A stretch of 63,971 nt of DNA, counting the filler, from Sluysia triapertura (Eukaryota): NCBI GenBank assembly GCA_046118255.1. It is 4 parts of 4 records of this genome, joined end to end, with 100 filler letters (N's around TTAATTAATTAA, not from the genome) between each part and the next. Parts side by side here need not be neighbours in the genome. Positions count along the whole stretch, not along the records: positions 12,340 to 40,265 come from JBJNIA010011095.1; 3 more parts are not named here. One strand, written 5' to 3'. The notes below the pieces were generated by a model that ran no database searches, had not been told where the DNA came from, and worked only from the letters and a program-made list of their open reading frames with translations. This document shows, one piece after another, positions 2,927 to 57,619 of this stretch. Numbering within the stretch: position 1 is the stretch's first letter; every line of letters begins with the position of its first letter. The translations under genes and the position numbers were made by a program.

Positions 2927-4573
2927 GTGATCCAAACTTTTTTAAAATTTCAACAAATATAACACAACAACAAATTCAAACTTTTAAAAAATAAATCACA
3001 ATAATAATAATAATAATTTATTAAATTATTTAAAAACATAAATTAGTGTTTGTAATTTAATTTTGTCTCAGTAAATATTTTTGTAATTCTATATATATAA
3101 AAACTATTTATTTCGTGTTTTTTTGGATTGAATATTTTCATATTGAATTAAATTATTTAATTCCAACGTCTGATTTTAATTTTGTTTAATAATGGCAAAA
3201 TTTGATTAATTGAAATATTTTCAAGAAATTAATTTTGTTAAAATTTAAAATTTTGAAAAAATGATTTCTCATAATAAAAATAATACTAATGATTTCGTCA
3301 AACAGTTTTAAAACAATTTCAAATAATAAGTTTCTTTTTTACTTTCAGAAAATAATTCAACTATTAATTTATTGTTTTTTTTCTTAATTTATAAATTTGT
3401 TAATAGTGAAATTAGCATTAATTTTTAATAATTTTTATTTTATTTTGCATTATACTTAACATTAATTTTTTCGCATATGTTAATATTTTAAAAGTTAAAA
3501 ATTACGGACCAAATTTATTTTTATGAGCATCATTTGTGTAGATAGAGATGAACATTTAAAAATATATTCTTTTAAATAAAAACGACATTTTGTACAGTTT
3601 ATTTGAGAAATAAGAGAATATTACAAAGCAATTTTATATAATATAGAATAAACAAATCAATTTAAACTGTATAACAGATATAAGTAGTAAATTAATATTA
3701 ATAATACTGTATATTTAATCATATTTCTTTTTGGTGGACTACTTAATTTTCGAAAATTATTTATAAAATACATACTAGTTGAAATAGTCAGTAATACAAT
3801 TTAATTTAATTTACCCTAATTAAAAGCTAGACTGATATAAGATTTGAATTTTAAATTTTCTTTTTTTAATTTTTGTCGTTTATTCACAAACGAGTAATAA
3901 ACTACATTTAATATTCCAACAAATGTGATGTCTCATTTAATAATCTACAATTTTATTTCCACAACAACACATAATCACCTGATAACTCAAAATATCTACA
4001 AATTTTTATTCCTAATCAACTTAAATTTTAATCTAATTCATTAAATTCACTTCGTAATTACACGTTTTTAGATTATTGCATATTCTGTTTGACAATATCT
4101 ATTCAACTATTTATTTCTCAGTGTTACTCATTAAAGTATTTTGGTTACAAGTCATTCAATTTTAATGTTTGTAATAAATCATATTAAACTGAAATAAATT
4201 CTTTGGTCTCAAATAAATTTGTCTTAAAGCTGAAATAAACCTTAGCCATTCTTATAAACAATTCAGTGTTATAAATGTTTTAACATAACTTTTCTATATA
4301 ATGACAGATAAAGAACTAAAAATATTACTTAAAATGTGATTTCATAAAATTAATTTTCTACTAATTTTCTACCACTAATATTAGTTTTTATATAGTTTTC
4401 AATTAATTCTTCATCAAAAAACTATCAATTATTATTGTAACTTACACTAAAGACGCGTTGACAAACACAATTTCAAATTTGATAATGTTGACGATCATAT
4501 CATGATTCATAACATTATTATCTTTCTTAATATTTTGTTAAGTTACATAGTAACATCACCTTTAGTATGTTTC

Positions 4574-5395
4574 TGTAGTTTTTCTTAACTTTTAACCCAC
4601 GGCAAAATAAAATTGAGCAGGGTCTGATGTCTTAAAGATGGCGTCTCTGTAACTAACACAAGTTAATTATAATGTCAAAAACTTAATTAAATTAGATGGT
4701 CTATTCAAATACTTATTTATCAATCGATCCAATTAAAATAAGAAATCAAGTAAATATGTACGTATTAATGAATTAACAAAAATTAGCTTATTCCAAACAG
4801 TTATAAAAAGAATACTTTTGATTTTATGATCAAAACCCTGAGAGTCTTTGATCTTTCTAATTTATTTTAAATTTAATTTAAAAAGTTCCCCTCATTAGAT
4901 CGGGGCTGTGAAATTTCCTTAATCTTATTTTTCCTTTATTTTAAGTTTCAATTTTAAAATTAATATAATATAATTAATTAATATAAAAATAATTAATATA
5001 ATTTCCGAGATTTTCCTGTACCAAATCGTAGAGCTGTATCCGCTCTTGATATACCGTGAATAATTTGCTGATTGTGATAATTAATGGTGATAAATTGTTG
5101 TGACAAATTATTATGCTAAAGAATTGATAAATGACTGAGATAACTAATTGTAATAAATAATTGTGTAATTAAATGAACTGATACCAGTTTATATACTAGT
5201 CATCAGCCAATAGAAATCGATGGAATGTTCTATAACATTTTATAAACTTCTATTCTATTTTTAGAAGCTTATTTTCTTTTTTGGACAATAAATGTTTTTT
5301 AGTTGTTTGGAAGCTTTTAAATATTTTTAAAATGGTTTTTAAAAGTTTTAATAATGTTTTAGATAATTTTAAATGGTAGTGATGGCAACCTAATA
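4574..5395 (+). mobile_element. Solo-LTR-like repeat, family A, copy 1
   Basis: Starts TGTAGTTTTTCTTAAC and ends GATGGCAACCTAATA. The same start and end motifs occur at 13816-14694 and 47741-48583 (inverted); partial copies end at 11051 and lie at 12340-12411. Consensus termini are TG...CA and length is ~0.85 kb. No clean target-site duplication (TSD). Confidence 0.65.
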
Positions 5396-10599: not shown

Positions 10600-11051
10600 A
10601 AATAATCAATGGAACAATGTTGGTTGATCCACTAAAATTGATCACAGTTGATAATTTTGTCCCCAAATCGTCAAATATTCTTGTATCGGTAATTTGTACT
10701 TAATTACCAAAGCTTTTCTAATAATTGGTATAAATTGGATGTTGATCTTCTGGAAAATGACAATTGTCAAAAAACAAATTTTCTACTGAAAACTCGTGTT
10801 TCTTAAATCGTGTTAATAAATTGTGAAAAGAAATTAAAGTGAGAATTGATTGAATTTTTTAGAAAACTCTAGAATGTTCTAGAAAGTAGTATTTTCTTTT
10901 TGCGAGAAGTTCCTATTTTCGAAAATAAGTTTTCTTTTTCGAAAAGTAATTTCTTTCTTAGAAAACATTTTTCTTTTAAGGAATTTAATAGTTTTAATAG
11001 CTTTTTTGTATTAATTTATTGATTTTAAAGGGTTGTGATGACAACCTAACA
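10600..11051 (+). mobile_element. Partial family A LTR-like repeat (3' part)
   Basis: Ends AAAGGGTTGTGATGACAACCTAACA like the other family A copies and has the internal TTCTAGAA/TTATTTTCTTTT block. The 5' boundary is approximate. Confidence 0.55.
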
Positions 11052-12239: not shown

Positions 12240-12339
12240 NNNNNNNNNNNNNNNNNNNNNNNNNNNNNNNNNNNNNNNNNNNNTTAATTAATTAANNNNN
12301 NNNNNNNNNNNNNNNNNNNNNNNNNNNNNNNNNNNNNNN
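12240..12339. other. Assembly gap with artificial TTAATTAATTAA linker
   Basis: N run, 12-nt six-frame-stop linker, N run; the same construct occurs at 40266-40365 and 53197-53296. Confidence 0.97.
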
Positions 12340-13330
12340 TGTAAGACGCTTACTGTAACCGAACCCTGCTAAAAAATATTTTGCCGTAGGTTAAGTGTTA
12401 GAAAAACCACAGCAATAAATATATAAGCAAAATTGTAGCTTGACAGTCAAGGACCTTAATGTATAACTTTAGTCAAATGAAAATTCAAATATTGAAATAA
12501 TTTTTAACGAAGAATTTATACAAATTAAAATATTAATATTATTAGACCGCAAAAGAAGGATCAATAAGTAAGATTTATGCTATTATTGTGGTTCTATAAT
12601 AATACATTCTTCTTCATATTCGTATTCGAAATTATATTATGTGATATTTATATATTTGTTAAAAATATTTGAATGTGATAAGCACAACTTGTAGTCGCTT
12701 ACATTGCCAATTGGCACGTGTGCAATACTGATACACACAATAATTGATTAATGTTTAATTTTAATCTGGTTAAGAATTTATTTGTAATAACTGTTTTCGT
12801 GAATTACACAATAACTGGTAGGCATTGCTTATAAATTATATTGTGTGTGCCCAATAATGAAAATTGTTTACGTTATATAAGTCTATGTTTTATAATGTTT
12901 TATTATTACATTTATTTATGTATTTTATAGTTCCACGTAATATTTTCTTTGTTAAACTGATATTTTACTGTCACTGTGATTTTATTGTCGCAGCCGCCAT
13001 ATTTCGATTTCTAAGCTTTTTAATTTTGAAAAAAAGAAAGTTTTTGGAAGTAAAGTCTAGACTGCTGTGTATAAAACATTTAATTTCCGATTTTCATTCT
13101 AAATTTAGTTCTGATTTACATTTTTTTTCATTTAATTTTTCAATTAAAAATACTGAAGTAATTTAAGGATATAAAAGTGTCTTTTAATAAATTTAATGAC
13201 TCATGATTTATTTTTGATTTATAAAATTAAAAATATGTACAAACATAGTTACTGCGGCACTGTTTGTTTTTCAAATGAAGATTATTAATTGCTCATTGTT
13301 AATATTAATTGAAATGCACGGTATTTTTAG

Positions 13331-13529: not shown

Positions 13530-13815
13530 GTTAATTTAATTTATATTGCTGTTTTAAATAGATTTTTCTATAATTTCAGATTTTATATTGTTAGAAATCA
13601 GAGATTGGAAAACCTCTTAGGAAAGTGGGCTATTTTCATAAGTCTTGATCATGTTTTTTCATACTCTGGTGTTACCTTTAATATTCAAAGTATATAATTT
13701 CCGATATCTATCTTGAACAAATAAATAACTTTTATTAATGTAGTAATAAATTTAGTAAAATATTATATTAATAAAACAATTCAAGTTTAAAGAAAATTTA
13801 TTTTTACAGTTTCGT

Positions 13816-14694
13816 TGTAGTTTCTTAACTCTTAACCTATGGCAAAATAAATTTTAGCTGGATCTTGTTACAGTAAACGACTTGCAACGGAAAGTGGGCG
13901 TTCCTGTAACTAAAAAATAACTATCACTAAAATGCAACCTTCGATTCTTTACTCATTAATGCGCTTTATATGTCTTAACTTATCTCATTTACTTTATTCT
14001 TGATTAATGAAATGATTTTAATTGATTTAATTACTCGTGATTTATTTTTATTAGCAGATTGTCTTAATGTGATATAGTTTTTAATATTTACGTTACACCT
14101 TAGTTACTTTGATAAAATGATTACAAATCCTCCAACTGAGTAGTTACAAGCAACAAAAAACACGAATGTTAATGTGATTTAAATTTTTCTTAAAAATGGT
14201 TAATTAATTTCGAATTATGACTAATAATAAAGCAACAGTTAAATAAAGTAATAAAAATGAAATAATTTAAAATTAAAGCATTGTTTTGGCCTTTAATTTA
14301 TTGTTTTTTTATAATTTTAGAATTAGATTTTGCCCCTTATTAAATCAGGGTTAAAAGCATTTAACAAAAAGATTTTTAGTAAATTTTAAAGTTTTAACAT
14401 ACAAAGTTAAAACTACCTTAATAAAATAACTTACCAAAACATCTAATTCCTGCAAAATTATTTTCCTTGTCTCAATAACTAAATAAACCGTGTCTGATAA
14501 ACGTAGAACGGAATAATTGTATAACTATGATTGCTGTGTTTTTATGATTAACTGTAGCTATATATACCAGCTAGCAACCATTCATAAACAAATGGAATTT
14601 TCTAGAATATTCTTTTTCTCTTTTAGAAAACTTATTTTCTTTTTTCGAAAATTACCTTTTTAAATTTTTTAAAGGGTGTAATGACAACTTAAGA
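13816..14694 (+). mobile_element. Solo-LTR-like repeat, family A, copy 2
   Basis: TGTAGTTTCTTAACTCTTAACCTATGGCAAAATA...AAAGGGTGTAATGACAACTTAAGA; colinear with 4574-5395. Confidence 0.65.
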
Positions 14695-14737
14695 GCTTGA
14701 AAAAATAAAGATAAGTTCAAACTTTTTTAAATAATAC

Positions 14738-15838
14738 TGCTAGTGTTTTTCTTACACTTAAGCAAATTACCTGAAGAGTCGGTTCGCCTAATATATACGT
14801 TTTACACCAAAACTGGAGACGTATTATTAGGATTTACTATTATTTTATGTTAGTGCTTACTTAACACCTTAACTTACAGATACTAAATTAATCTTACAGA
14901 TAGTTAATTAAATTAATTAAGATTTTATGTATATATTACGCAACCCTTTTTATGGTGTTGCTTTTTGTAAAAATAATTAAAATTCCGCAACCCTTGTATG
15001 GTGTTGCTCGAAAATATTTATGATTTTATATTTACGCAACCCTGTTATGGTGTTGCTTATGAAAACTATTCTTTATAAATTTAAAAATTACGCAACCCAG
15101 CTATGGTGTTGCTTTAATAAAGATTTTAGTTTAATAATAAAAAACTTAAAAAACTAAATTATATTATAATACACTTAAAAAACTTAAAAACAATAAAACT
15201 TAAAAATAATTTATAACCAAAAAATTATAATAACAATAAGATTTTATTGAAGTTACTCAATTACAAATTGGTAACTTATGAAGTTTAAGCAAAGATTTCG
15301 CAACCCAGTTATGGTGTTGCATACAAAAATTAAATGAATTTACGTGGATATTATGTTTCCCCTTATGGTGAAACGAAAACTTAAGCAAATAAAAATTACT
15401 TAGGCATGGAAGAAATCATCTTTGCATAAAAGTTGGTCTTCGTTTGAATTGTAAAATCTTCTGAAAAACTAAAATTTTCTCCTTTCTAAAATGTCTTCTT
15501 AAAATTTTCTTTATTACTGAAATTCTATTAAATTAACAAAAAATGTCTACCTTTTTATACTAATTTCTTCAAAATGTCTTCTTATTTAATTTATTTTGAT
15601 TCACTTAAACAATAATTTCTGGATTTTTCTTTTTTAATCATTTATTTTGAAATTTAATTATTTATTTTTAATTTTAACTTAATTTAATTTATTTTAATTT
15701 TTATTTCTAATTCTAAATTTTAATATTTTAATTTTTTAATTTCTTTAAATTTTTTTAATATAATAATAATAATAAAATTAAAGAATGTAATGTTCAATAA
15801 TAAAATCAAGAATAATATACACAATTTACATTCTGACA
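14738..15838. mobile_element. Solo-LTR-like repeat, family B, copy 1, with an internal hairpin array
   Basis: TG...CA termini. Shares CTGAAGAGT.GGT.CGCCTAATATATA and TGGAGACGTATTATTAGGATTT with 46394-47373. Contains GCAACCC-N4-5-ATGGTGTTGC five times plus one variant. Confidence 0.7.
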
Positions 15839-16002: not shown

Positions 16003-16850
16003 TGTTTCTTAATGTAAAGGAAGAATTTAACTTACAGATACTCGAAAATAATATCAAAATGATTGATTTCAAATCGTGTAAATCAGGATATTTTTTCAGC
16101 CGGATCACAAATAATACCAAAATCAAATTATCTTCTTTGTTGGAATATTTCGGAAACAATTAAAAAAACGAAACAAAAGTCATTCTTGAATTCGCAGGAA
16201 CCAAATGATCAAATCGTGTAAGTCAATTTATTTTCTTCACAGGAACAAAATGATTTATCAACAATTCGCTGTCTTTTTGCAATTAATTGAATAGTATATC
16301 AGCTAAAAAAAGTTGTCGAATTAATACTAACTAATATTACTATATGACTATTCTTAAGTCAACATAAGTAATTATCTATTTATTTAGGTAACAAAATATG
16401 GAATTCTCATGGTATTTATTTTAAATTATTTATTTTTTAGATAATAGCATAACAGGATATCTGGTAACTTATTATGTTTAACTGATAATTTTATTTTTTT
16501 AGATTACCAAATGTCAAGCTCTCGGGTTATGTGTTTTATATTTATTTATTATTATAATTTATAATAATAATAATTATTTTTTAGATTCCATATTTTGTGA
16601 TCATCTATATTATGTGATCCTGACAAATAATTAGAAAGATCAGATTCCGTTTTCTACTATTTTATTGTCGAATTATTTTTCAGAGTATTGTTTAGAAATA
16701 ATGTGTTTAAAACTATTTCAATGTCTCTTTATTAAATTATCCATACTAATGTAGTTATATTTTTATTTTAATTCACATTATTTTTAATTTAATATTATTT
16801 TTTTTACTGAAATTGTTTAAATATTATTTAATGATAAAATAAACTGCGAT

Positions 16851-18888
16851 ATGTTAGATATATGTAAATTAACAAAAAATGAAGTTAGTCGTTATGGTCG
16901 TCAAATCATAGTGGGAGATTTTGGTGTTAACAGTAAATGGTTTTATTTCGTTACTAAATATCTCATTTTTTTATTAGCTCAATATAATTTACGAGATGCC
17001 ACTATATTAGTCATTGGTTTTAATGATATTACGAAATGTGCTGTTATTTATTTAGCAGCTGCTGGAATTGGAAAAATTAAATTGTTTTATAATCACGCAG
17101 AAATTTATGAATTGAAGTGCGATATAACAAAATTGAATTCTGCAGTACAAGTTGAATTTATTCAAGAATTGTCTAAAAAGGATAAATTTGATGCTATATT
17201 ATTGAATGAAGACTGTAAAGACATAGCATGTAAAGGTCCTATTTTTCAATCGGAAATAGATGGCTCGGTTTGCCGTTTAAGGTTACTTTTAGAAAGTGAT
17301 AATTTGTCGGATTGTAATGCTAAATATGAGTCTAAATGTGTTGGGTGTTCCGATTTAATGGGTTTGTTTCAAGCTACTGAAGTTATAAAATATATTGGTA
17401 AATTAGGTAAAGTAAAGCAAACATTTACATTTGACATAAATGAACATAAATTTACAAAAAAAATGGATTCTAAAAATCACTTAAAAGAAAAAAAGCTAAA
17501 TTCCGTTTTAATTGTTGGTTGTGGAGGTCTTGGATGTCCAGCCGCACATACAATTGCTAATTCTGGTTGTTTTTCAACAATAGGTTTAGTAGATAATGAT
17601 GTTGTTGAAGAATCTAATTTGCACAGACAAGTTTATCACAACGAAGAACGAATTGGAATGCTAAAAACCGAATCTTTGAAATGGCACATTGGAAAGTAAT
17701 GTATTTAGAATAATTAGTAATTATTTATTTAGAATAAATTCTAATTTAAATGTAGAAACTTTTAATGCTCGATTACGACGTGATAATGCAATAGATATTA
17801 TTAAAAAGTAAGCTTATATTTCTGTCACGATATAAATATTAGGTATGATGTCATATTAGATTGTACTGATAATATTCCCACGAGTTATCTGGTTAGCGAT
17901 TGTTGTGTATTGCTGCAGAAACCTCTTGTTAAGGGAAATGCACTTAAATTAGCTGGTCATTTAGCAGTTTATTGTTACCGAGGTAGTCCTTGTTATCGAT
18001 GTATTATTCCAACACCGCCGGATGTTGTGGGTAATTGTGCTGATAATGGAGTACTTGGATCAGTGCCCGGTGTCATGGGAACTTTGCAGGCAATTGAAGC
18101 TATCAAAATTGTATCCGGTAAAGAATGTATGGCTGGTCAATTCCTTTTATAATGCTTTATCGAGTGATATTCGAGTTTTTAAACTCGGTAATCGGAAATC
18201 CAATTGTTTGGCTTGCGGGAGTAACTTAGATAATCGTATAAATATGAATTTAATGGATTATCGGGAATTTTGTGGCATGCCTGATGATGATAATGCTTGC
18301 AAATCAATTCGATTGTTGGAACCTCATGAACGAATTTCCGTTGAGGTTAGTTGCTTTATTTAATGCTTTATAATTATAATTATTGGTTGAAATGTTTAGA
18401 TAAAAAATTTAAAGTATGTTAAAGAAATGATATTAGGCCGAGTAAAATTTATTGACTTTGAATATTCTCCGTGTGTATCGTTTAAAGCCTTCCTGAAAAG
18501 AATGAATGTTATTGTTATAAACATGTTTGGTGCAGTTTAGAATTACGTTTCTTTGTGTGGTCACATAAAATTTTATTGTTTAACTGTACATGAAAAGGAC
18601 CTTTTCATCGTATCATATTTGATAAGGTGTTATGTGTAGTGTATGTCTCTTCCACATGATGTTTGTCCAAAGTCTCGTTATGGATGACTTGTATCTAAAC
18701 AAGAAATGAGCCTCTTATTGTCATTTTAAATTCTTATTGTTTTCCGATTTTGAAACATTTCACTGATATATTTATTTTATTTTTAATTCAGGAATATCAG
18801 CAAGTAGTCATCAGTGGTCAGATACATGTCTTGTTAGATGTGCGTCCAAAAGAACAGCGCGATATTTGCCGAATTAAAAATTGTTTAG
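16851..18888 (+). CDS. MOCS3: MOCS3/UBA4-like adenylyltransferase-sulfurtransferase with an extra degenerate N-terminal ThiF domain. Exons 16851-16932, 16978-17695, 17733-17807, 17843-18345, 18792-18888; 3' end not found; frameshift at ~18148
   Basis: Motifs [83 protein letters not shown] and rhodanese start [12 protein letters not shown] introns restore the frame at each junction. Confidence 0.9.
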
Positions 18889-21699
18889 GTTATATTTTAT
18901 TCGAATTTGATAATACATTTGATTTTTCCAAAAACTGTTATTCTAAGTCATGTCTTAACTGATGCGATTTTGAAGCTGCAATTTCGATTTAGAAAAAACG
19001 AATGTTTTCACTACATTCCAACAACCTCAATGAGAATTGAACGTTTTTAATAGTTTTGGTTATCCAGCCAAACTGGATAATAAAATTTTATAGAGTGCTT
19101 TAATAATCTAAGAACATGGGCGTGCGCATTACTTTTTATAATCATTAATAAACATGTGGAATCTGTAACTCCTTCGATGAAAATTGGTCACTTAGTATTA
19201 TATAATCGAGAAAACACAGCAATAAGCACAAAGAGATGTGTTATAAAAATAAACTCGATGGTCGAATTAGAGAGTGATGTTTAATAAATGAAACAAAGTA
19301 TTGTATTGCTGGTAATTTAGTGCTGGGTTTTACAACGTTTAGGATAAAATAGAGAATTTGAACTTAGTCTAGAATCTGATTTAGAAACACCCTTAGTATG
19401 AGATTCCTTTACATTTATTGTCATAAGTAAGGTATTCGAAATTTAAAAATAAGTTAAATAATTGAATAAAAATTAATTTAGTTTACTACACAATCAAAAT
19501 AACTTGAATACAAAACTTTTAGTAAAATAGGTTAAGTATAGATCGACATGTTCGAAATGGATCAAATCTAATTGCCATGAAATTCAAATATTTATAAGAA
19601 CGAGTAGAATGTCGATGGTGTGAATTAGAATAACCACCTAGTCTTACCAAATCGTTGAAATTAATATACATCAATCAGGTTTACTAATGGCTAATGAACT
19701 AGTTGTAGTTATATTTTGCTGCATGATTAGTTTTAACCCTAATAATATTGAATTATTAAAACTTGGCTTTGTAAGCCAGGTGTGTTTTAATTATAAGAGA
19801 CCCAACAGAATATCATCCTACTAATATTTATCATTTCTATAATATGTAAAAATAAGAAAGTTCATTTAGCCAGATATCAAGAGAAGCACCACAAATAAGT
19901 ATAAGTATAAATATAAATACAAGATTAAAGCCAGTACATTTTCCGATGTTGAAATTGTATATATTAACATGACTGCGTTAAAAGAAGTACGCGGTTTTAC
20001 AAGTACGTGCTTTGAAAAAAATTGAATTAAATAAATTTAACAATTAATCACTATATATATTCACTCTAAACAATATAAAATAACTTAATTAATTCAACAC
20101 AAAAAATATAAAAATATATAATAGCAATAATTAGTTTAACAGGTACTTAAAAATTTAAGATGATTTTAACCTAGCGTTTTTACGGTCTAGGAAAGTTTAT
20201 AAAGTTTAAGTGTATTTTATTTTCAGCAAGTTGATATCAGAAATTAAACTTATTTCAAATAATTCTTAGTTATAAATTGTCAATATGACTACAAATCCCT
20301 CTTCTATTTATATGGTTTTTTCTGCTACCACATTAACTATTTACAACTGTCTATTAATTACTTCAAATAAACAAAACTTACAATTTTCTTTATCTAATAA
20401 TATAAAACAAATTTATAATTTTCTTTAATTATTTAAAAATTTTAATTAAAAAGTTATAATATATTTTATATATAATAATTTACATTTAAATATTTAATTT
20501 ATACATTTAATATTTTATTTAAAATTTTATTTTAAAAATTTATTAATATTTTATTTAATATAATAACTATAAAGATTTAAAAAAGTAAACAATAAATTAA
20601 GTAATAAAATTAATTACAGAAATATTTTTACAAATAATAAACAAAAAATTATAAGTAATAAATCAACTCAACATGATAAATAAAGTCATATTCATACTTG
20701 CTCAAATCTGAAAACAGGTAGAGTTTGAAGTGTATTTTGTCCCAAAATCAATATTATTATCGTGGAATCTTGTATTATAGTTATTTTAACAGTTGGCTAT
20801 ATTACAAATTTTATTAATCACAAAACAAAGTGTTTGAAACCTAAGCAATTCACGAACAAAAATGTGCAGATCAATAAATGACTTCCAGAATACTAATTTC
20901 AATATTTTTCAATGATAATAAAATGAGGTGACAAATTTTTTACTTGATAAACTCCATAAACGCCACCATTTATAAAATTTCATTTGCACATCTAAATTAA
21001 AGACTGATTTTTATCTATGATAATTCAAATTGTTTTTACAAAGTATCATAGAATTATCATACACTATGGAAATTCAATTTTATTCAGTAAAAAATGAAAA
21101 TTCTGCAAACAGCAGAAAAAAGCTACATTATAAAACAACATCAAACATTGAATCTTAAATTTTGCTATAGACCATTATTCCTAAGAAAAATTAAATTATA
21201 AATAAATTATATAAAACTTAAGTGATTTGAAAAAAATAATGCACTTGATAAAAAATATTGGACCCTCTACGATTAATTATCGTTTATAACAAAAATCATT
21301 ACATGATTTATATTGGTAGTTTTGAGAGTGCTATCAGTTAGTTTTATTGTATTCACTAGTAATAGATAATAAGGAATAACACGTGAGCCTCAAAATATCC
21401 ATTCAGTATATTTTACTTTACCTTGACTGTAGTCTGTAACAATTTTTAATAATAATGTTAACAATTTTAATAATAATAATATTAATCGAATTAATAATAA
21501 TATACCAACCTGGAAGACGATGACGACAATATTAAATTTTCCAAAAAATTCTTTAAAATTATAATTTCCGATAATTAATATTTAATTCAGTATTTTTGAA
21601 ATTCTAAACTTAAATTAAATATTTAAATATTCAAATTATAAATGTCTAAACATTTAAATTTACATTAATATTTAGACTTTAACCACTAATGTTTAATTA

Positions 21700-24049: not shown

Positions 24050-24570
24050 AAAATTGCAAGTGCAACTTAAGTGTAAAATTTCCCTCGATACCTTTGTTGT
24101 GGGTGCCCTTGGTTCCTGGGATCCTAATAATGACCTTCTTCTTAAATCTTTGGGTTTTCGCAAGACAGAAATTAATACTTTAGCTCGTCAGTGTGTTCAG
24201 ATTTCCCTAGAGTCTTTTAATATTTATAAGGGCCACACCCTCCAGTTTCCTGACTAACTAATTTATTTCCTCTTCTATGTTTGAAAGTTTTCTACCGTCT
24301 GTTCATGTTCTAGTTCTCCTTTCACTTTTCATTTTTCAATTCTCTTTCTTCTCCTTCTTCACTAATCATTTCCTCATTTCAAATATTTTTCTCTTCACAA
24401 ACTGGAAGCCGTCACTTCACAATGGTCGAATCCAGAACAATTCAGACTATTCAACCAAATTCCAGTGGCACGAACTTTGAATTTTACAAATCAACATTGT
24501 TTTGACCCCATTTTTTTAATTGTCTTTGATTATTTATACTTTGTACCATGTTTTAAAAATAAAAATTTTC
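24050..24570 (+). mobile_element. 3' end of a 5'-truncated RLE-type non-LTR retrotransposon (NeSL/Utopia/R5-like)
   Basis: SLDTFVVGALGSWDPNNDLLLKSLGF...ISLESFNIYKGH* matches the conserved C-terminus after the restriction-like endonuclease (VGxLGSWDPxN...IYxxH). It is followed by a pyrimidine-rich 3' UTR and AATAAA at 24558. Confidence 0.75.
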
Positions 24571-24574
24571 AATT

Positions 24575-24634
24575 CATCGAACGCAAGAGGTCCTGAGTTC
24601 GATCTCCACTTAGTTCATTTTATGAAGTCTAACA
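24575..24634 (+). pseudogene. Degenerate 3' half of a tRNA-like element (same family as 54352)
   Basis: GAGGTCCTGAGTTCGATC (B-box) followed by CATTTTATGAAGTCTAACA, matching CATTTTACGAAGTCTAACA after the 54352 copy. Confidence 0.65.
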
Positions 24635-25415
24635 TTTTCATACATGATCTCAATAATTTCAATAGTTTTATTTTGAACAGACCTAACACTTTGAATACCA
24701 AATTTAGTATCTTTTTGAACTTATTTCAGAATTGGCAGTGGATATTACATTTAATAGAAATTTAATTATTATTATTTCGTTGCACACAGAATACTTAGTC
24801 AATATTAATGTTTAAATGATATTAACACTGGCGAGATTTTATTGTTTTGTAGAAAATCCCATTGATTTTTAAAAGAAATACAATAATTCAATCAATATTT
24901 ATTCAATATTTATCAATATTCATTTAATAATCCTGTTTAAGACGTCTCAATTGACTTTCGTGTTAACAACACATTATTTCGATATTTGTGATAAAGAAAA
25001 TTCAATTTATTAATGCTTATAATTTTATTGATCCGAATAATTTTAAAAAGTGTAGAAACCTAGTTTAAGAAATCAAAATAAAATAAAATTGTAAACTAAA
25101 AGTTAAACTCGAAATTATAAAATGGAATTTAGTTTATAAATTGAAATTATAATTTTAATTGGCTTTTCATATATTTTCTTGCATTAAAAAAATTTTTGAA
25201 TTATTTTATCTAAAAGCATTTTTAATATTAATAGAATTTTGCACTTTTTCACCAAGAGACTTGATTTAAAATAAATCACTTTCAAGTTTAAAATGTTATA
25301 AAGTTGTCAAATATTATTTCAAGTTAAACAATCATAACTGTTCTTAATTGTTAAAGTTTCAACTTCGAGTCATTTACTAAATATTGTAAAGTAATTATCG
25401 ACTTAAGAAATTTAA

Positions 25416-25636
25416 CCCATTAGCAACCATGGTTGTCAAATGACAACTTTACGGTTTATATTTTTTTTTATTGCATTATATTTTTAATGAAATTTCCTAG
25501 CGAAACAATTGCATTGGTATGTGTTGCGTACACAAATATTTTTATAAGATTTGATTTTGTGTGTAAGTAACATACCAAGATAAGTAAATGCATGTCATGA
25601 TTTTTAAATTTTGAAAAAAATCTGGTCCTTAATGGG
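25416..25636. mobile_element. piggyBac-type MITE (221 bp)
   Basis: TTAA on both sides; TIR CCCATTAGCAACCA vs reverse complement CCCATTAAGGACCA. Confidence 0.75.
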
Positions 25637-26579
25637 TTAAATAAAAATTAACATTAAAGGATTTCATAAATATTTATTAATATTCTCGTAATTTTAAATA
25701 ATAAAGTCACAGTTTTTAATAACAAAATGAATAATTATCGAAATTTTGGCATATCGGAAATTCCTCAAAATCCATGAAGTTGTGAAAGTATGTACTGCTG
25801 AAAATTGGTATCAAAAGTATGGTAGTGGTAGTAACTATTACTATTATTGTTACAATTGTTATTCATTTGTTCATTTCGTGCAAACTTCTATTGTTTGTAT
25901 TTTGTCTCTATTATTAAAGCTTTTATCTCTATTAGATATATTTAGATCTATTATGAACTGGAGAAAAACGATACCAATTAATAAATTTAACAATTAGTAT
26001 ACGAAAAATCAAAACATGAATAGGAAATTTTTTGAATGTGTTTATTTATTGTTCCTCTCATTATGACTACCTGCCAGTTTTCAGTCCTTTCTTAATAATG
26101 ATATTCACATTAATAGAAGCAACTACACTAGTGTGTGTCATAGGACTTATTTATAAAAGTATTCAAAATGAATATATCAAATTAACAAAGAAAACAGTAT
26201 TATCCCAATTTTGATGCAACATATTTGTCTACAACTTCTTTTCATATTATCTTAACTATAGTTATTGCAGATTTGGCTCCTTTATATTTCTTCTTTCTCA
26301 TACATGATGGTGGCTCCTGACTTGAAATCAGTACCAGTGTCAGTTATTATTTTATATCAATAGGTGTTAATTTGTTCGGCAAATTTAATATTTATTTGTC
26401 TGAAGTTTTATTAATAATGCAACATTCAAATAAAATAAACTTATATTCTATTAATGATCAAAAACAATTTTGTAAGATTATATTGAAGCAAAATGAATAA
26501 GCTTTTAAAAACTTATTGTTGCTGTCCTAAAATGAATGATTGTAGTAGTCCTAGTTGGTTCATTCAGTACATCTCAATA

Positions 26580-34157: not shown

Positions 34158-36235
34158 TTGAAAGGGAAAAAGAATCAAAAAACGGAAGATCCAACAAATA
34201 TAATGACACAATTATTCGGCAATAACGGTATCATATTAAATAATGCAATACCAAGGATAGGCAATTCGACAAATAATATGCTGTTTATCATAATACTATT
34301 AGCAATGTTCGGCATAAATAGAACTAATGCAATAAAGGCATTTGACTGTAGCCAGTAACAAATAGGCAGAAAAATTTCATTAATGGACACAGAAGATTGT
34401 CTTGAATAAAGGCCAAATAAAATACAGGTAAAAGATACTAAAATAATGAATGTTTACCAAGAAGGTAATCTAATAACGACTATAATAAAGGAGTGTTAAC
34501 GATCAGTTGCAATCTGGTATTGCGGTCACCGTAGCTATTCATCAATAATAGAATTATCTAATGTACTTAAACCATTTAAGATACTACCTAAACAATGCAG
34601 AAATGCGTTTGAGACCGGCTGTATAAGTCTAACAAAGGGAGAAAAATTGAAAATATGAAATAATGAAAAGATAATTTATAGTATAAGAACCGCCGGAAAT
34701 GTACTAAGAGATGGGGCATGTGAACAAGGAACGATAGAATATGAAGGATAAATCTATCACAATGTTGTCGTACAGGAGACATACGTAGTTAGTTTGAAAT
34801 CATTTAACAAGAGTTTTGATATAGAAAAAAGTACGATGATGTCGCGATCATATTGCAGAAGTGATGAAACCAATTGCGACACTGGAGAATCAATACTAAT
34901 TTTCGAATTTCAATGTCCACTAATATTTCTTAAACAAATAAAATTTAATGTAATATCAGGATTTTTGTATCAAGATAAAGACGAATACCCATTAGAAGAA
35001 ATAAATAAAAATTCTGACCATATACAAAGAAAAAGATTAGATGAAGTCGAAACATCGGCAATACCAATGGCCAGTAGGGAAGAAGATGGTTTAATTTTTA
35101 TTTCAAAGGAACAATAATCCGCTGTGGAAAAGAAATAACAACCAAGGAATTTATCTCTCAGAGAAAATAATTCAAAAAGCTAAGAAAGGCGTTGATACTA
35201 AAAATATAAAATTAAATGCCTATTTTAACAACAAAATCGATTTCTATTACCATTTAGGTTTGATTTCGCTAGAAAAAATTTATCAAATTATGGTTATTCG
35301 GGATTGTCAATTAAACAAAGAAATTTTACGCACAAAATTGGCAATAGCTACTAAAAATCCAGACTTAGTCGCACCATTAGAAGAAGGAGTTTTCGGTCGA
35401 CTAGTGGGAGAAGTATTATACACGTACAGATGTAAAAAGATGGAAGTACAGTTAAAGTCAACTACCGAATGCATAAATGAATTACCTATATAATACGGTG
35501 AAACAGAAACACACCTCGAACCAGTAACCAGAGTAATCTTTCAAAATAATAAAGTCAAACCAAAATTAATGCACTCCTCTAATGTCATGGCAGCGGAATA
35601 TAGAATCGATGATAATTTATGGATATCCTTGCCTCACAGAAGCCAGGTAAAACTCTAGAAATAATAGGATTAACTGAATTAAAGGGAAAACTAAAATTTT
35701 TAGCTACAAAAAACATACCAAATTCTGGAATTTATACGAATGACGATATGCAAGCAGCCTGGCGGAAGGTACTATTCCCAATAAAAAGGTTAAAAATATA
35801 ACTGAAATTGTAGATAAAGCAACGATTTACTATTGGGACCCGATCATTTTAAAAGAGCTGCACAAGATACACTAAAACAGATATGGGGAAAAATTTTAAT
35901 ATTAGGACAAGCATTTTCTGGATTAATAGGAATATATAATAATTAAGGTAATAGCATTGATAATTTCTCAAGCTTTTTCAGTAGTCGGAATTTATAAAAT
36001 CTCAGAATTTACGTGGAAATTAATAATTGGACGTTTTCCATTCCTTGCAGAATACCTCTTGCACCACCATGAAAATGCTCAAATAAATGTATTAAGAAAA
36101 GAAAGACAATATACAGAAGAAGGACAACAATTACAAACATTGCAAAACAGTGATAATGAGGAAATAGTAGAAAATCAAAAATGCATTGAAATTCAGGAAA
36201 ACATAGAAACAACTAAAGAGAATAAGAAAAGATGA
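34158..36235 (+). pseudogene. Decayed envelope glycoprotein, class III fusion type (chuvirus G / herpes gB-like), part of the Ty3/Gypsy element
   Basis: Read through stops: signal peptide MLFIIILLAMFGINRTNA, AFDC, ISLMDTEDC, WYCGHRSYSS, QCRNAFETG, GACEQG, NVVVQ, YFNNKIDFYY, RDCQLNKEIL, GEVLYTYRC..MEV...ECINELPI, LEPVTRVI, GIYTNDD and C-terminal hydrophobic segments. Family assigned by motif recognition, not a database search. Confidence 0.85.
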
Positions 36236-39200
36236 CTATATCCTATTACTCCAACATCATCACCCAATGTAATCTATATGATATGCTCTAATAACAATTA
36301 TAATGGATCAAAGAGACCAAGAATAAATGCTAGAAAAAGGGTAGAATAAACAGCACTAAGTGATACAGGAACAGTAGCCTCCTTAATCAACGAAAACGTC
36401 TTAAATAAAGATGAATTAAAAAATTTAACTAATCATACCTCTCGTCTTTCAGGAGTTACAGGCGATGCAATTAATATAACTGGGGTAATGCGAATTAGGA
36501 CAAAATAGATTAGAAATTAAATTAAGAGTTATGAAAAATGTCCAGAAGAAATGATAGTGAGAATAGACATTTTGTCTCAGTTAAAAAGAGTAACATTAGA
36601 TTTCGACCAAGTAAAATTAATGGATAGTGGATCAAAAAGAATTATTGATGATGATGACGTATACGTAGATGAACCAATCTGGTTAGTAAAAAGAAGTGAA
36701 TATATTGCAGGTCAAGACAAACAGTCTATTAACCGGAAATATCATGTTTATTACATCAGAGATTAATCAAGAGAAGTTAGATATAGGAATAGCTAGTGCA
36801 GTGTAAAATAATTGCGAAGAGAAAATACCCGTTAGGATTATAAACTACACAAATGACAATAAATGGCTTTATATAGGGACAAAATTAGGAAAAATAGTTA
36901 AATATACAATACCAGCACATATTAACTTAATTTCGGAAAATAAAAGTAAAAAACGATAAAAAGTAACATAAAATTACAACATGAGATACAAGACGAAGAC
37001 TATGGCGAAATATAAATTATTAATAAGAATTTAACTAGGAATCAGACAGATCAGTTATATAGTATCAAGAGAAATAGCGAGAAATAAGTGCGACATTGGA
37101 GATTCTGTAATAATAAAACACTAGATAGCGCTAATAATAGATAAAGTAATCCGAAAAAGCCATACAGAGTACCGATATGTAATCAAAAGGAGATGCAAGA
37201 ACAAATAGATACTATGAAAAAATCCGGAGTGATAAGACCAAGCATCTCACCTTTCTCATCTCCAGTTTTATTAGTTAAGAAAAAAGATAGTACAATGAGA
37301 TTTTGTATAGATTTTAGAGAATTAAACAAGGTACCAAGAAAAGACATATTTTCTTTACCAAGAATAGATGAAATGTTGGACGAATTAGGAAACTCCACAA
37401 ACTTTACAACTGTTGATCTACAAAGCGGTTATTGGCAAATCGAAATCGCTGAAAAAGATAAACATAAAACCGCACCTGCAACTTTCCAAAGGTGCATGAA
37501 TTTCGTACTATCAGGATGTAAAATGTTATGGTATACAAAGATTTCGAACCACTTATAAAAGATATTGACAATATTCTAAATAGACTGGAAATAGCTAAGT
37601 TGAAAATTAAACCAACAAAATGCGTTTGGGCTGAGAAAAAAGTCGAGTTTTTAGGACACATAATGTCAAAAGATGGAATAAAGCCCAATTCGAGAAACAT
37701 AGAAAAATTAGTAAAATTTCCACAACCCGATAATGTAAAAAAGATTCAATGTTTTTTAGGATTAGCTAATTACTAGAGAAGATTTGTTAAAAATTTTGCT
37801 AAGATAGCACAACCACTCAGGAAGTTAACACGAAAAAATGTCGAATTTAAGTGGACTAATGAACAAACTAAAGCGTTTAAGGAATTGAAAGAACGACTAA
37901 CTACGGCACCAATACTAATTTTTCCAGATATTAATAAACCATTTATATTGACTACTGGTGTTATTGATGTAATCTTAGGACAGAAAGACAAAAACAATTT
38001 AGAAGCAATAATTGCGTACGCTAGTCGACGACTAAATAAGGCCGAGATGAATTATTCGACCACTAAAAGAGAATGTTTGGCTATTGTACACGCATACAAA
38101 TTATTTAGGCATTATTTATTAGGACAGATAGTTTATTTATATACTGATATCAAGCGGCTGACCTATTTGTATAATCACAAGGAGGAGATCAGCAGATTAA
38201 ACAGATGGTTTAATAAATTAGCAGAGTATAATAATGGTGCAGATTGTATGTCACGCTTAACTAATGTAGATGATAAAGGAAATATTAATTATATACAAAT
38301 AATGTCAATATCAGAGAAGATAAAGATACCGCTTATATTATAGATTCATTAGCGAAGGAAACCTTAATTGAAAGTCAAGCAATCACTGATGGAATGCTTA
38401 GATTTAGAAATTCAAAAGATGAATGGAAAACAGTTGTCCCTAAATCATTAGTAACACAAATATTAATACAATTTCATGATGGACATCTGTCTAAGAGAAA
38501 AACACTATCCAGAATAAAAGACAAGTATTATTGGGAAGATATGGAAGATGATATTACAAATTGTTGTAAAAATTGTTCAATATACTACAGGAGAAAAAAT
38601 ACGGGAACAGGGTCAAATGTACCATTAAAACCTATGCCTGTACCAATGCCACCAATGGAATTCACATAAATGGACATAATGGGACCACTATCGGAAACCA
38701 TTAATGGAAATAAATATATTATTGTGTTTGCTGATTATCTAACAAAGGCAGAAACTGTAGCACAAATACTTGTGAAGAAAATAATTTATAGATATGGTAC
38801 ACCAAGGAAATTATTGACGGATCAAGGTAAAAATTTTACAAGCGATATAATTAAATCAGTAGCAAAAATATTTAACATTCTTAGAATCTAAATATTACCT
38901 TATCATCCACATACAGATTGATTAGTTGAACAATTCAATCGGACACGAATAAATATGTTACAATCATATATTAATGATAGACAATCCTACTGGCACTTAT
39001 ATTGCACCATGTTTATTCTCTTATAGAAGTTTGGTACATCCAGCTACGAATTTCACACCATTTTATTTGATGTATGGACGACATTCTAATATGCCTGTAG
39101 ACTTAGAATGGATACCACCAATGACATAATACGTGGAAACACCAGAGTACGTGACAGTAATGCATGGAAGCGTGCTGGCTTACAAATAAAGTTTTCACAA

Positions 39201-39430
39201 GAAACATATAAAGATACATATGATAAAAAAGCTAAAGAGCACAATTTTCAAATCGGTAACAAAGTACTTATTGAATATCATTTAGCTAAACCTGGACAAT
39301 CACCAAAATTACATAAGCCATTTAAGGGACCATATAAAGTGATAAAAATTACTGATACTAATTTATTTGTTGAAAATGGATTCAAAAACATTCATAATAC
39401 ATGCAAAAGTATAAATTGCACCAAATAATG
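36236..39430 (+). mobile_element. Decayed Ty3/Gypsy pol: protease, dUTPase-like spacer, RT, RNase H, integrase
   Basis: Protease ALSDTG (36362). RT IRPSISPFSSPVLLVKKKD..MRFCIDFRELN, DLQSGYWQI, PATFQR, FLGH, FLGLANY. RNase H AYASRRLNKAEMNYSTTKRECLAIV. Integrase HD-GH...C, MDIMGPL, LTDQGKNF, GPY. RT-RH-IN order is the Gypsy order. Many stops, frameshifts and deletions. Confidence 0.95.
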
Positions 39431-39543
39431 AATATAAGTTAAAAAATAGGACATTTACCAAATCACTATTAAAAGCTAAACCGAAAATTAAAGATCGTGA
39501 TAAACCACCATCAATACAATCATTAATTGATAAACAAGTAATA

Positions 39544-39870
39544 TTGATGTTTAATGTATCAACTGGAATACGAACGCATATTTTTCAAAATGTGTATTTT
39601 AATGGTAGATGGATCCGAGCTGTTATAGATACCAGGGCTACCACGTCTGTAATACATTATAATTTTTTAACTACATGGGAACTTGTATTTATAGATCCAC
39701 CACAAACAATAATGTTCATCGAGCACCAATAAATATGAATGGAATAATACATGCACATTTAGATATATTAGACAAACGAGTAGATGAGTATATTTAGGTT
39801 TGAGAAGAATTTCCTTTCGATTTAATAATTGGTTTAGATATACTTGACAAATTAGATGACATAGTTATAC
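39544..39870 (+). pseudogene. Second retropepsin-like aspartic protease downstream of integrase
   Basis: VYFNGRWIRAVIDTRATTSVI (DTG to DTR by one base, 39628-39636); after a frameshift, FPFDLIIGLDIL at 39819. Confidence 0.75.
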
Positions 39871-40025
39871 ATAGTAAATACGGTCTTATGAATTTTCACA
39901 TGGTGCACAATTACTAATTCCACATGTTGTTGTTCCATTTCTTCATAATGACATCACTCTGATATATCCAAACACCTGATCTTGAATCTAATAATCCAGC
40001 ATCGCCACCTGGCCGATTATCTGAT

Positions 40026-40265: not shown

Positions 40266-40365
40266 NNNNNNNNNNNNNNNNNNNNNNNNNNNNNNNNNNN
40301 NNNNNNNNNTTAATTAATTAANNNNNNNNNNNNNNNNNNNNNNNNNNNNNNNNNNNNNNNNNNNN

Positions 40366-45040: not shown

Positions 45041-45279
45041 TTAACCGTGATTTTTGCCTGTTATCGGCAAACGTCGATTTTGCGCCCATGCTGTATTCTC
45101 GGAATACTTCAGTTTTGGTCTGACTGCTTCTACTGGTAAAACTCGTCGTCGTTGTTTTGGCAGTTTACTGCGTGCTTGTGTATGAGAGTAGAACATAGAA
45201 AAATTGGAAACAATAACAGGAACTGGAAGAGAAATTGTAAGTACACCTGTTACAGCACATAAGGCTCCAACTAACATAC
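45041..45279 (-). CDS. Shaw: Shaw/Kv3 potassium channel, S6 and C-terminal exon
   Basis: ttcag acceptor, phase 1, matches the upstream exon. [51 protein letters not shown]. It may end at the stop at 45041 or splice at gttaat. Confidence 0.93.
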
Positions 45280-45854
45280 CTGAATATTTGATTATTTCAT
45301 TAAAAAACCACGTCAGATTTAATCTAATAATAATAATAAGAAATAATATTATTATAATTAGAAGCTTTATCTGTAAATTATTTTATATTCTAAATGTGAC
45401 TCTATTAATTATTTCTGGAGTCAAATGCTCAAATACAAAAAGCGTTCTGACAGACCTTATATTATGCAGATTTTAAAAAATTTTAAAAAACAATTCGTTT
45501 TAATAAATGGTTTTAAAACTTGAATTAGACATATTTCACTTGTTTAGAAATTCAACACGATCATAATACTATTCGCTTCCATTATTATTGATCATTGATT
45601 TCGAAGCTTGTACATGGTTTAAAGAAATCCACGATTTACCACAGTATATGTTTATTAACAATGATAAATTCTGTAATTATTGTTATTTTTATTGATTGAT
45701 TCTAATTTTTTATAATATCAGACTTTTAAATTTGGACAGTGAATAATACAGTTACTAGCTTGACTCACTTAAATTTAGAATGAATAATATTTTTAAAAAA
45801 TGATGAGTAATAATTATTAGATAAGTAATAATTATTACGATCATTTGATATTAA

Positions 45855-46393: not shown

Positions 46394-47373
46394 TGTGAGG
46401 GTTTTTTCTTAACCTACTTGCAAAATATCTGAAGAGTTGGTCCGCCTAATATATAGGATTTATGCCACTATTGGAGACGTATTATTAGGATTTTTATAAT
46501 TTATACTTAAGAAAACTTTTGCTTATGTCTTACTCTAACAATTAATTATTGCGTTATAATTATAGATTTTATATTTACACAACTCTCTTTAAGGTGTTAC
46601 TTTAAAAACAAATTTGATTTAAATTTATAAATTACACAACCCTTTTGGTAAGGTATTGTTTGAAAACAATGATTTATTTTACGTAAAATAAAATAATAAT
46701 CCTACAAAAATCTGTTAAAAAATCGTACACAGAAATTTAATATTATAATAATGATATACAATTTAATAATTCAACCTTAGTTGATTACATATAAGTTTAA
46801 TTTAAAGATTACCCAATCCTCTTTAAGGTGTTTGTACGAAAATATTAAAATAATTTAAGTAGATTTTAGTTTTCTTGTATACAGTGAATACGAAAAACTT
46901 ATAAAGAAAAAATTACTTAGGATGCATGGATCTTCTAAAAATTTGATGGTACCTTCGTCGAGTTCCTAAATTTTATTTTTATTCTAATCCTTCTAATTAT
47001 ATTATATTGTTGTTCTGATTCCTACAAAATTTTAAAGAATTTATATAGTAATTTACTTTACGCCATTTTAATTTAAATTTTTCTTAAATAAATATAAAAA
47101 TTATCAAAAATAATTACCTAAATTAGTTATTTAAACAAAATATTTTCTTTCTAATAAATTAAACAAAAGGTTTTTTGGTATTTAATTAATTTTATTTTTA
47201 ATTTAAATTTTAAAGTAATAATTTCTTTAATTTTAATATTTGTTTTTTAAAATTATTAATTTCTTTTTAATTTTCTTATTTTTACTAATTTATTTAATAA
47301 TATTTGTATAATAATAATAATATTTACAAGATAAATTTTACAGTAGATAAAATGTAAAATTTACAATCCAACA
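46394..47373. mobile_element. Solo-LTR-like repeat, family B, copy 2
   Basis: TGT...ACA termini with ATTT on both sides (possible 4-bp TSD). Colinear with 14738-15838. Degenerate hairpins at ~46579, ~46636 and ~46811. Confidence 0.7.
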
Positions 47374-47740: not shown

Positions 47741-48583
47741 CGATAGATTGTCATCACGACCCTTTAAATGCTTTAAAATTATTTATAATTGTCTAAAAAC
47801 ACTTAATAAGTGTTCATTTTCCAAAAAAGAAAATACAATTTATAAAAAAGAAAATTCGCTTTTATAAATAAAATAAAAGTTTCCAGAATGTTCTAGAACA
47901 TTCCATCGATTTTCATTGGCTGATCACTAGTATGTAAATCAGCATCATTTTAATGAAAATGGCCATTTTATAATTAGTTTAACAAAATTCAGCGCAATTT
48001 GTAATTTTAACCAATTAATACACAAATTTTCTTTATAACCGACGCTATTTTGAAACAATATATTTTAACTCATGGACAGATCGGACTGGACTTCGAACAA
48101 ATTTATTATACGAGGATTTTCATATTCCATGAAAGGGTAACTTACTTTATTTTCAAGGCGATTTTGATTTTTTATAAGTCAAGATCTGAAAATACAGGAA
48201 ATTTAATTCTTAGATTTAATATTGTAAGAACCCCAACAAATTGAGGGGAAATTTTCTACTTAAAATTTGAAAGCAATTACATCGAATATCCCAAGATGAT
48301 TTAGATCATAAAATAATATTTACGTCTTATTTTGTTGTTTTCTATTCTGTATCATAATCTATTATAAACGTATATTTAGTTTAATATATAATTTAAAAAT
48401 AAAAATAATTGAGTCTTTTATATTTAAAATTAAGATCCTCGTAACAAATTCGCTAGAAACGGTTAAACGTATTTTTAAGTGAATATAGTTAACTTATCAA
48501 GTTGCAGAAACGCCAACGTTTACTGTAACCGGACCCTGCTCAAATTTTTATTTTGCCGTAGGTTTAGCTTTAAGAAAACCACA
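47741..48583 (-). mobile_element. Solo-LTR-like repeat, family A, inverted copy
   Basis: GATTGTCATCACGACCCTTT...GACCCTGCTCAAATTTTTATTTTGCCGTAGGTT...AAGAAAACCACA is the reverse complement of the family A termini. Confidence 0.68.
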
Positions 48584-48894
48584 GTGCATCGGTCAAAGTG
48601 TCCTTGAAAAAGACAAATACCTTTACAAAATGTATTTCAACAATTGAAACGAAAATATTTTCCTTTTTTGCTATTAAAAAAGGTAGTTTAAATTTATGTA
48701 AATTTAATAATTTAATATAAGAATGTTACATGCTTGTTTACTTAGGGAAGCTTTTGTTGATTTTTCCGCTAATTTTCAAGGCATTTTAATTTGAAATAAA
48801 AGCATAGATTAATGATTTACAAAAATGAAAAAAGTAATTATTTCATAATTTAACTAAATTTTAATACTACATTTAAATAATTTTGAAAACTTAC

Positions 48895-54351: not shown

Positions 54352-54423
54352 GGGCTGATAGCTCAGTGGTAGAGCATTCGAACTGCGCTGCGATGGTCCC
54401 GGGTTCGATCCCCGGTCAGTCCA
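54352..54423 (+). tRNA. tRNA-like element (Ala/Cys-like pseudo-tRNA or SINE head); nominal anticodon TGC
   Basis: Acceptor stem GGGCTGA/TCAGTCC, D arm GCTC-AGTGGTA-GAGC, T arm CCGGG-TTCGATC-CCCGG, then TTTT. The anticodon stem TTCGA/TGCGA has two mismatches. Confidence 0.7.
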
Positions 54424-57400: not shown

Positions 57401-57619
57401 CCAGCAATGATTAAGACTTTATTGCCTATGATCTTGTAACCATAGTTGAAAGTAATGGTGAAAGTATGGGATTTGATTTAATGTTATGGGATGATGTAAG
57501 TGAAACATATTGTAATGTATTATTATTTTTTGTGGTACAGTTTTCGTGTCTATGATTGTCGTTATTGATGTTATGTGATCGCAGTAATCGGCTGAACCAC
57601 TACATAAACCCTTGAGTTT

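Follow-up and report, generated by a model that had tools for sequence, protein, structure and literature searches.

Structural conservation of an array of bulged hairpins in a non-coding interspersed repeat of Sluysia triapertura: a possible multivalent protein-binding signal

Solo LTRs of Gypsy and BEL elements, as is generally known, are like the repeat that we describe here from the genome of Sluysia triapertura in their length of 0.7-0.9 kb, in starting with TG, and in possessing a TATA- or AATAAA-like word and upstream repeats, but the present repeat lacks a paired copy, and no CA end with duplication, primer site or purine tract was established for it. The Helentrons of the HINE and DINE-1 type are, like this repeat, gene-free and high-copy, with a 5' arm and its inverted repeat, a variable number of internal repeats and no evident target duplication; they differ in having a terminal 3' subterminal repeat and a palindrome, both missing here, and the accessible parts of the respective papers describe no covarying bulged hairpins (PMC4067079, PMC7492417, PMC11417382). 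The Penelope-like pseudo-LTRs and animal retrozymes, as characterized in the available portions of the sources (PMC11167929, PMC8557442, 10.64898/2026.07.22.740005), differ in that no hammerhead, tandem units, reverse transcriptase or GIY-YIG nuclease adjoin the copies examined here. The bacterial REP/BIME and IS200/IS605 end hairpins are likewise short, imperfect and arranged in arrays, with the bulge or unpaired T and the loop being read by a protein, although REPs have a GTAG foot and form inverted pairs, whereas the units described below are co-oriented, with TT-N-N before the stem (PMC8266576, accessible part). The array is apparently undescribed: in a search mainly of openly accessible papers, we found no literature match for internal covarying bulged hairpins in an animal repeat, and an unclassified entry in a repeat database or in a published consensus library is conceivable.

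The window (the whole stretch of DNA that was analysed, 63,971 nucleotides with filler, GC content 17-33%) consists of four pieces separated by three spacers (44 N, TTAATTAATTAA, 44 N) at 12240-12339, 40266-40365 and 53197-53296, and distances across the spacers are unreliable. It encompasses a MOCS3-like ThiF gene, whose introns are short, and genes for a Shaw potassium channel and a rhodopsin-type receptor, along with pogo/Tigger remnants and a broken Gypsy element. The channel is at most 57-58% identical to any animal protein among the matches listed, so that the host is an invertebrate with no near relative among them. The MOCS3-like gene (16821-17699, plus strand) contains an additional, divergent ThiF-like region ahead of the ThiF domain that Pfam recognises (match only at residues 227-289), which suggests a tandem arrangement. 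The Gypsy-type element (34300-39900, plus strand) is represented by pieces of the reverse transcriptase, RNase H and integrase with many stops and frameshifts, and upstream of its pol there is an envelope-like piece of a Monjiviricetes (chuvirus-like) fusion glycoprotein (35095-35490, E 5e-18). At 24050-24260 (plus strand), a frame reading ...VVGALGSWDPNND..., the overlapping ORF pieces of which have no Pfam match, resembles the endonuclease end at the C terminus of R2/NeSL-type non-LTR elements. A tRNA-like sequence at 54352-54423 (Rfam, 50 bits), with a partial second copy at 24589-24635 that runs past the tRNA end, is likely a tRNA-derived SINE, and a short element with piggyBac-like ends, detected by eye, lies between TTAA-CCCATTA and TAATGGG-TTAA at 25416-25638.

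Within this window, we observed four copies (c1 to c4) of a non-coding interspersed repeat of approximately 0.7-0.9 kb that together carry 14 bulged hairpin units, eight of these outside c1. The copies and their parts are as follows (X1 is a public sequencing run):

14738-15610, plus strand: copy c1 of the non-coding interspersed repeat; by contig depth, its 5' end lies within 14734-14738 and its 3' end at or beyond about 15610
14738-14764, plus strand: head hairpin 1 of c1, predicted to fold with a 2-nt bulge on the 3' side and a T-rich loop; same shape with another sequence in c2 and c3
14787-14831, plus strand: head hairpin 2 of c1, with a long stem, an internal loop and a small apical hairpin; two-sided changes in c3; deepest part when X1 was mapped to 14500-15700
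14940-14961, plus strand: bulged hairpin unit 1, stem GCAAC/GTTGC; summed depth about 2.9e5 in X1
14987-15007, plus strand: bulged hairpin unit 2, stem GCAAC/GTTGC; in X1, no stem substitution at 1%, loop and flanks variable
15036-15056, plus strand: bulged hairpin unit 3, stem GCAAC/GTTGC
15092-15112, plus strand: bulged hairpin unit 4, stem GCAAC/GTTGC; loop variants at 15099 and 15101
15300-15320, plus strand: bulged hairpin unit 5, stem GCAAC/GTTGC; positional counterpart of 46813, 62121 and 20170
15355-15374, plus strand: bulged hairpin unit 6; its stem, GTTTC/GAAAC, differs from that of units 1-5 and pairs fully
15377-15409, plus strand: tail motif of c1, with AATAAA at 15388, ending in CATGG; includes a 12-bp direct copy of the 3' arm of head hairpin 1
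20130-20290, plus strand: recognisable part of copy c4, with one unit (20170-20191) and a tail-like stretch
46394-46930, plus strand: copy c2, with a head, four decayed units (46579, 46636, 46813, 46869) and a tail
61561-62240, plus strand: copy c3, a diverged subfamily, with a head, units at 61835, 61883 and 62121, and a tail

The units share one plan, namely, a 5-bp stem enclosing CC, a loop of 5-7 nt that ends in TA followed by T, C or A, then GG and a bulged T before the stem closes; across all 14 units, the loop length is 5-9 nt. A sequence-only reading of this DNA had identified the six units of c1, and all six are present at the positions it gave, with Watson-Crick pairing at 42 of 42 pairs; the period of 47-56 nt that it assigned to the first four units (actual spacings 47, 49 and 56) and the change on both sides of the stem of unit 6 with pairing retained are equally accurate. 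Tandem Repeats Finder reports a 56-nt period, at 75-77%, over 14979-15143. The strict form of the motif occurs seven times on the plus strand of the window and never on the minus strand, whereas 60 block-wise dinucleotide shuffles, scanned on both strands, averaged 0.1 occurrences and never exceeded 1; the seventh match, at 61835, has an unrelated stem (GACAG/CTGTC). A relaxed motif scan yielded counts at chance level (24 and 14 vs 6-23), and the exact-pattern scans gave 0 and 0 matches in viral contigs and, again, 0 and 0 in metagenome contigs. The degenerate units previously indicated in c2 were recovered at 46579 and 46636, whereas the third starts at 46813 rather than 46811 and a fourth, at 46869, comes in addition. 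Also absent from the earlier account were the units at 61835, 61883, 62121 and 20170, which have other stems: 62121 is GCCAG/CTGAC, with one mismatch; 61883 is decayed; and 20170-20191 is CCTAG/CTAGG, with CC altered at one base. The description of the spacers as non-repeating holds for the distal 19 nt upstream of the six units of c1, which are no more alike than shuffles (864/2000), but not for the 6 nt adjacent to the stem, which are conserved (1/2000 shuffles for the full 25 nt).

Invariant or nearly so across the 14 units are the TT four bases 5' of the stem, the CC/GG pairs, the TA at the 3' end of the loop and the bulged T, and there are four unrelated stem sequences, each fully pairing. 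Counted directly by coordinates, 84 of the 98 pairs are Watson-Crick, 3 are G.U, 4 are A.C and 7 are other; in the alignment, which understates unit 6 of c1 because this unit is misaligned there, 88.5% of the 96 cells are paired, as against 68.2 +/- 3.0 in shuffles. Two-sided changes occur at six of the seven pair positions, the covariation score was reached by none of 500 shuffles, and pairing drops to 29-45% when the structure is slid along the alignment, but, given that the units were in part picked by the motif and are related by descent, the shuffle test is overstated, and these figures are not probabilities; the independent stem replacements number about four. Over the window, a model of the units recovers only its 14 training units, the next match having an E value of 0.81. 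What is conserved is thus the structure rather than the sequence of the stem, as had been surmised, and this is borne out by the two-sided changes across the copies. This makes a fixed-sequence DNA palindrome improbable, and the array is most naturally read as a multivalent signal that acts as a single strand.

The head of c1, of about 95 nt, consists of hairpin 1, a purine-rich linker and hairpin 2. The c2 head is 81% alike to it over 102 nt, and the c3 head retains the fold, with two-sided changes in 6 of 28 pairs (three sequences); a pseudoknot between the U-rich loop of the head and a downstream purine run may form. Copies c1, c2 and c3 each begin with TG (14738, 46394 and 61561), the boundary being known to a few bases, and c2 is intronic to the Shaw channel gene, which runs on the minus strand (exons 45041-45382 and 48854-49765). 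Stretches of 160 nt surrounding the last units of c1-c4 were compared in all six pairings, each of which beats 599-600 of 600 outside windows; because these surroundings align, 15300, 46813, 62121 and 20170 mark units that correspond in position but differ in their stems. In the tail, AATAAA in c1 and TATAAA in c2 and c3 precede CATGG by about 20-25 nt, although family-wide support for the tail motif in leave-one-out searches is weak (E 0.22, 1.3 and 7.9, with two misses). The direct copy of the head arm in c1 (14756-14767 = 15379-15390) has a score that was matched by 3 of 300 shuffled queries; a tail copy of the 3' arm of hairpin 1 is found in c3 as well (10/300 shuffles) but not in c2 or in two related heads.

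A second repeat family in the window has a similar two-hairpin head (4558-4669 and 13800-13924 on the plus strand; 12340-12427, 48487-48599 and 57308-57405 on the minus strand), and three of its copies carry a CCCC/GGGG-type hairpin further on. That these five heads belong to the same superfamily as the c copies is suggestive only: a profile based on four of the five did not pick up the c heads, and the c-head model hit three of them at E 0.91, 3.6 and 4.2, among 29 chance-level matches. Directly upstream of c1, there is also an abundant short repeat (14540-14690, X1 depth 3.5e4) that recurs at 5188-5392, 10840-11050 and 47744-47938; the first and the last of these recurrences are 74% alike, in opposite orientation.

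Run X1, which contains 62% of the sampled words and may be the source of the window itself, supplied 2,415 contig records that mapped to 14500-15700. At the 5' end of c1, the depth rises from 52 (14664-14704) to 2.1e5 (14746-14786), and a locus-specific contig ends at 14763; on the 3' side, it declines over 15566-15688, first from 2979 to 541 and then to 41, and the common sequence runs to about 15610-15650, with low complexity masking the end beyond. The summed depth is 2.4e5 in the head and reaches the value listed above in unit 1, compared with 15-17 on two locus-specific contigs; it does not equal copy number, being inflated by overlapping short contigs. Taken with the presence of four copies in 64 kb, this depth makes thousands of copies a fair estimate, and the family is likely high-copy. 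Over 14928-15068, X1 contains nine substitutions at a frequency of at least 1%, none of which falls in the stems of units 1-3, whereas position 14996 in the loop of unit 2 and its flank (15008-15010) vary at a high share, up to 98% of the depth, and loop length varies as well; contig mapping favours conserved words, so this constancy of the stems is supportive only. Joints in X1 skip 49-329 nt between units, showing that the unit number differs among copies. Runs X2-X6 contain the same variants at 0.05-0.15% of the X1 depth, which is likely carry-over, and were not counted as other hosts. None of these six runs is an RNA run, which speaks neither for nor against expression.

We propose, with confidence that is about evenly balanced, that the hairpins constitute a multivalent protein-binding signal in the plus-strand RNA of a gene-free, retro-type mobile repeat. 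Under this scenario, the array would load several molecules of a putative retroelement partner protein onto the RNA, and recognition by this partner (Gag, ORF1 or reverse transcriptase) would involve the loop end, the closing pairs and the bulge, the stem being a scaffold only. Only copies that keep the head and the array would be captured and recopied, which would explain why these are fixed while the spacers drift and the unit number varies; on the simplest view, copying depends on the head and the hairpins since both stay fixed as the spacers drift. The repeat itself could be a solo LTR, a Penelope-type pseudo-LTR or a SINE-like passenger. Binding at the conserved features, the RNA state and the partner are all putative.

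In favour of this proposal, we count the two-sided stem changes, the stem constancy and the variable unit number in X1, the plus-strand preference of the head, the greater firmness of the units as RNA, the TG starts and the AATAAA/TATAAA-like words. Against it, we count the lack of a coding partner near the copies, the lack of strand bias in the hairpins and of G.U pairs in the intact stems, the equal raw energies and the better folding of hairpin 1 of c1 on the minus strand, as well as our failure to establish a target-site duplication, a primer-binding site, a purine tract, a poly(A) tail or a hammerhead. Among eight heads, hairpin 1 prefers the sense strand in six when folded as RNA and in four, with one tie, when folded as DNA, the hairpin of c1 itself being an exception. 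The consensus of three heads forms 28 pairs on the plus strand (-8.3 kcal/mol) and 10 on the minus strand (-4.5), and the z-score for folding of the whole copy is -9.7 vs -3.1 (20 shuffles each), although the raw energies on the two strands are equal (-134.7 and -134.8). Intact units have computed energies of about -3 to -5.5 kcal/mol when treated as DNA and of about -5.6 to -9 when treated as RNA, which mildly favours RNA. The absence of G.U from intact stems is not what one usually sees in RNA and speaks mildly for DNA or for a strict binder. The hairpins alone are strand-neutral (3 G.U vs 4 A.C). The original suggestion of a multivalent protein-binding RNA or ssDNA signal gains from the conserved structure, but the hairpins do not decide between its two versions.

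The operator of phage MS2 has a 4-nt loop and a bulged A on the 5' side. The resemblance of the minus strand to MS2/PP7 operators that had been pointed out is real as far as it goes, in that the 5-bp stem, the single bulged A, the 2 bp, the loop and the free stem sequence are all there; however, the loop in our units is 5-9 nt, the head folds better on the plus strand, to which indirect evidence points and where the bulge is a 3'-side U, and the likeness is geometric only.

With regard to the class of the element, the earlier label of an LTR-like family agrees with the TG start but not with paired LTRs: c1 and c2, with heads 81% alike, are not a pair and lie in different scaffold pieces, with the spacer at 40266-40365 between them. 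Neither a head nor a unit was found in the available flank of the Gypsy remnant (34.3-39.9 kb). Scans for CA followed by a target duplication gave 3-of-4 matches at 2 of 13 CA sites for c1, one exact and one near match of 11 for c2, and one near match of 88 for c3, all in AT-rich words, and are at chance level. In c1, c2 and c3, TGG follows the tail CA, as in a primer-binding site, but the sequence beyond differs and is AT-rich. No polypurine tract adjoining the copies was seen by eye, and no poly(A) tail was established for them; the short (TAA)n at 15756-15775 could not be linked to a duplication. An Rfam search, a check recommended at the outset, found no family, hammerhead included, at the copies at E up to 1, and its matches in the window, a tRNA-like sequence and a potassium-channel editing signal, are both away from them. 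The CTGAAGA word of c1 and c2 was rejected as a hammerhead, having no GAAA core after the stem and being lost in c3 by eye, and inspection against the consensus shapes of the hammerhead, HDV-like, twister, pistol and ENE RNAs gave no fit. Naiads also lack a hammerhead, so that its absence is compatible with some Penelope-like elements. Neither a reverse transcriptase nor a GIY-YIG frame was detected beside any copy, 96 short ORFs and 21 stop-read frames having given no such Pfam match, and the one reverse transcriptase match in the window belongs to the Gypsy remnant. A SINE derived from tRNA, 5S or 7SL RNA was likewise rejected: none of the copies matches tRNA, 5S or SRP RNA in Rfam, and the T-runs in the head and loops would stop Pol III.

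The main rival, which we consider rather unlikely, is a non-autonomous rolling-circle element (Helentron/HINE, HLE2) whose hairpins are read as ssDNA by an HUH transposase. As in HINE/HLE2, head hairpin 1 has a 5' subterminal arm with an inverted repeat 1-22 nt away, and such a terminal hairpin, together with the 3' copy of the arm in c1 and c3, the variable number of central repeats and the lack of a clear duplication, recalls HINE/DINE-1 as presented in the accessible parts of the papers (PMC4067079, PMC7492417). Moreover, the intact stems are purely Watson-Crick, and the HUH transposases of IS608 and ISDra2 bind hairpins via an unpaired T and a loop T, according to the available portion of the source (PMC8266576). 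By contrast, the arm copy is missing from c2 and the two related heads, the 5' flank of c1 is not T-rich, no RepHel fragment was found among the scanned ORFs, and the hairpins are marginal as DNA. Furthermore, the 3' subterminal repeat of HINE/HLE2 is located 38-60 nt from the end and is followed by a palindrome (PMC4067079, accessible part), whereas at least 220 nt separate the best partner in c1 (15377-15390) from the end of the common sequence, with no conserved palindrome after it.

Quite improbable, in our view, is a family of host non-coding RNAs or an exapted regulatory module in which the hairpins bind a host RNA-binding protein and dispersal is secondary. The complex, conserved head, the two-sided changes between diverged copies and the likeness of the invariant loop end and bulge to a protein site would all suit such an RNA, but the four copies in 64 kb, the decay of c2, its intronic antisense position and the very high depth are typical of a transposon, and no Rfam family was matched at E up to 1. 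We assign a similarly low probability to a neutral origin, whereby inverted repeats arising from template switching were duplicated by slippage and amplified with the element, the fold being unselected. Template switching is able to change both arms at once, and the units within one copy have a common, apparently concerted stem; it would also tend to remove the bulge, however, and CC/GG, the bulged T, the TA at the loop end and the TT four bases before the stem are fixed across four stems. An array of double-stranded DNA binding sites (an enhancer or insulator, as in LTRs or leader repeats) is very improbable because, for all the spacing of about 50 nt, the AT-rich spacers, the downstream TATA-like word in c2 and c3 and an invariant core that could be a factor site, the 5-bp arms are wholly different between copies and yet complementary, which a factor that reads the duplex does not need.

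Conceivably, although we think it unlikely, the array reflects a new kind of animal mobile element, namely, a gene-free RNA (or ssDNA) that consists of a structured head and a phage-operator-like array loading many partner proteins, with a stem specific to each subfamily and one common loop-and-bulge code. How non-autonomous elements choose their partner machinery is understood for few families, and thousands of natural hairpin copies that are free to vary in the stem but held to one loop and bulge would amount to a ready-made mutational scan of the signal. They would also be a natural counterpart to the engineered MS2/PP7 arrays, and, if the binder were found, the hairpin-protein pair could serve as a new RNA-tagging module. 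Should the signal turn out to be ssDNA, it would represent internal hairpin arrays in an animal rolling-circle element.
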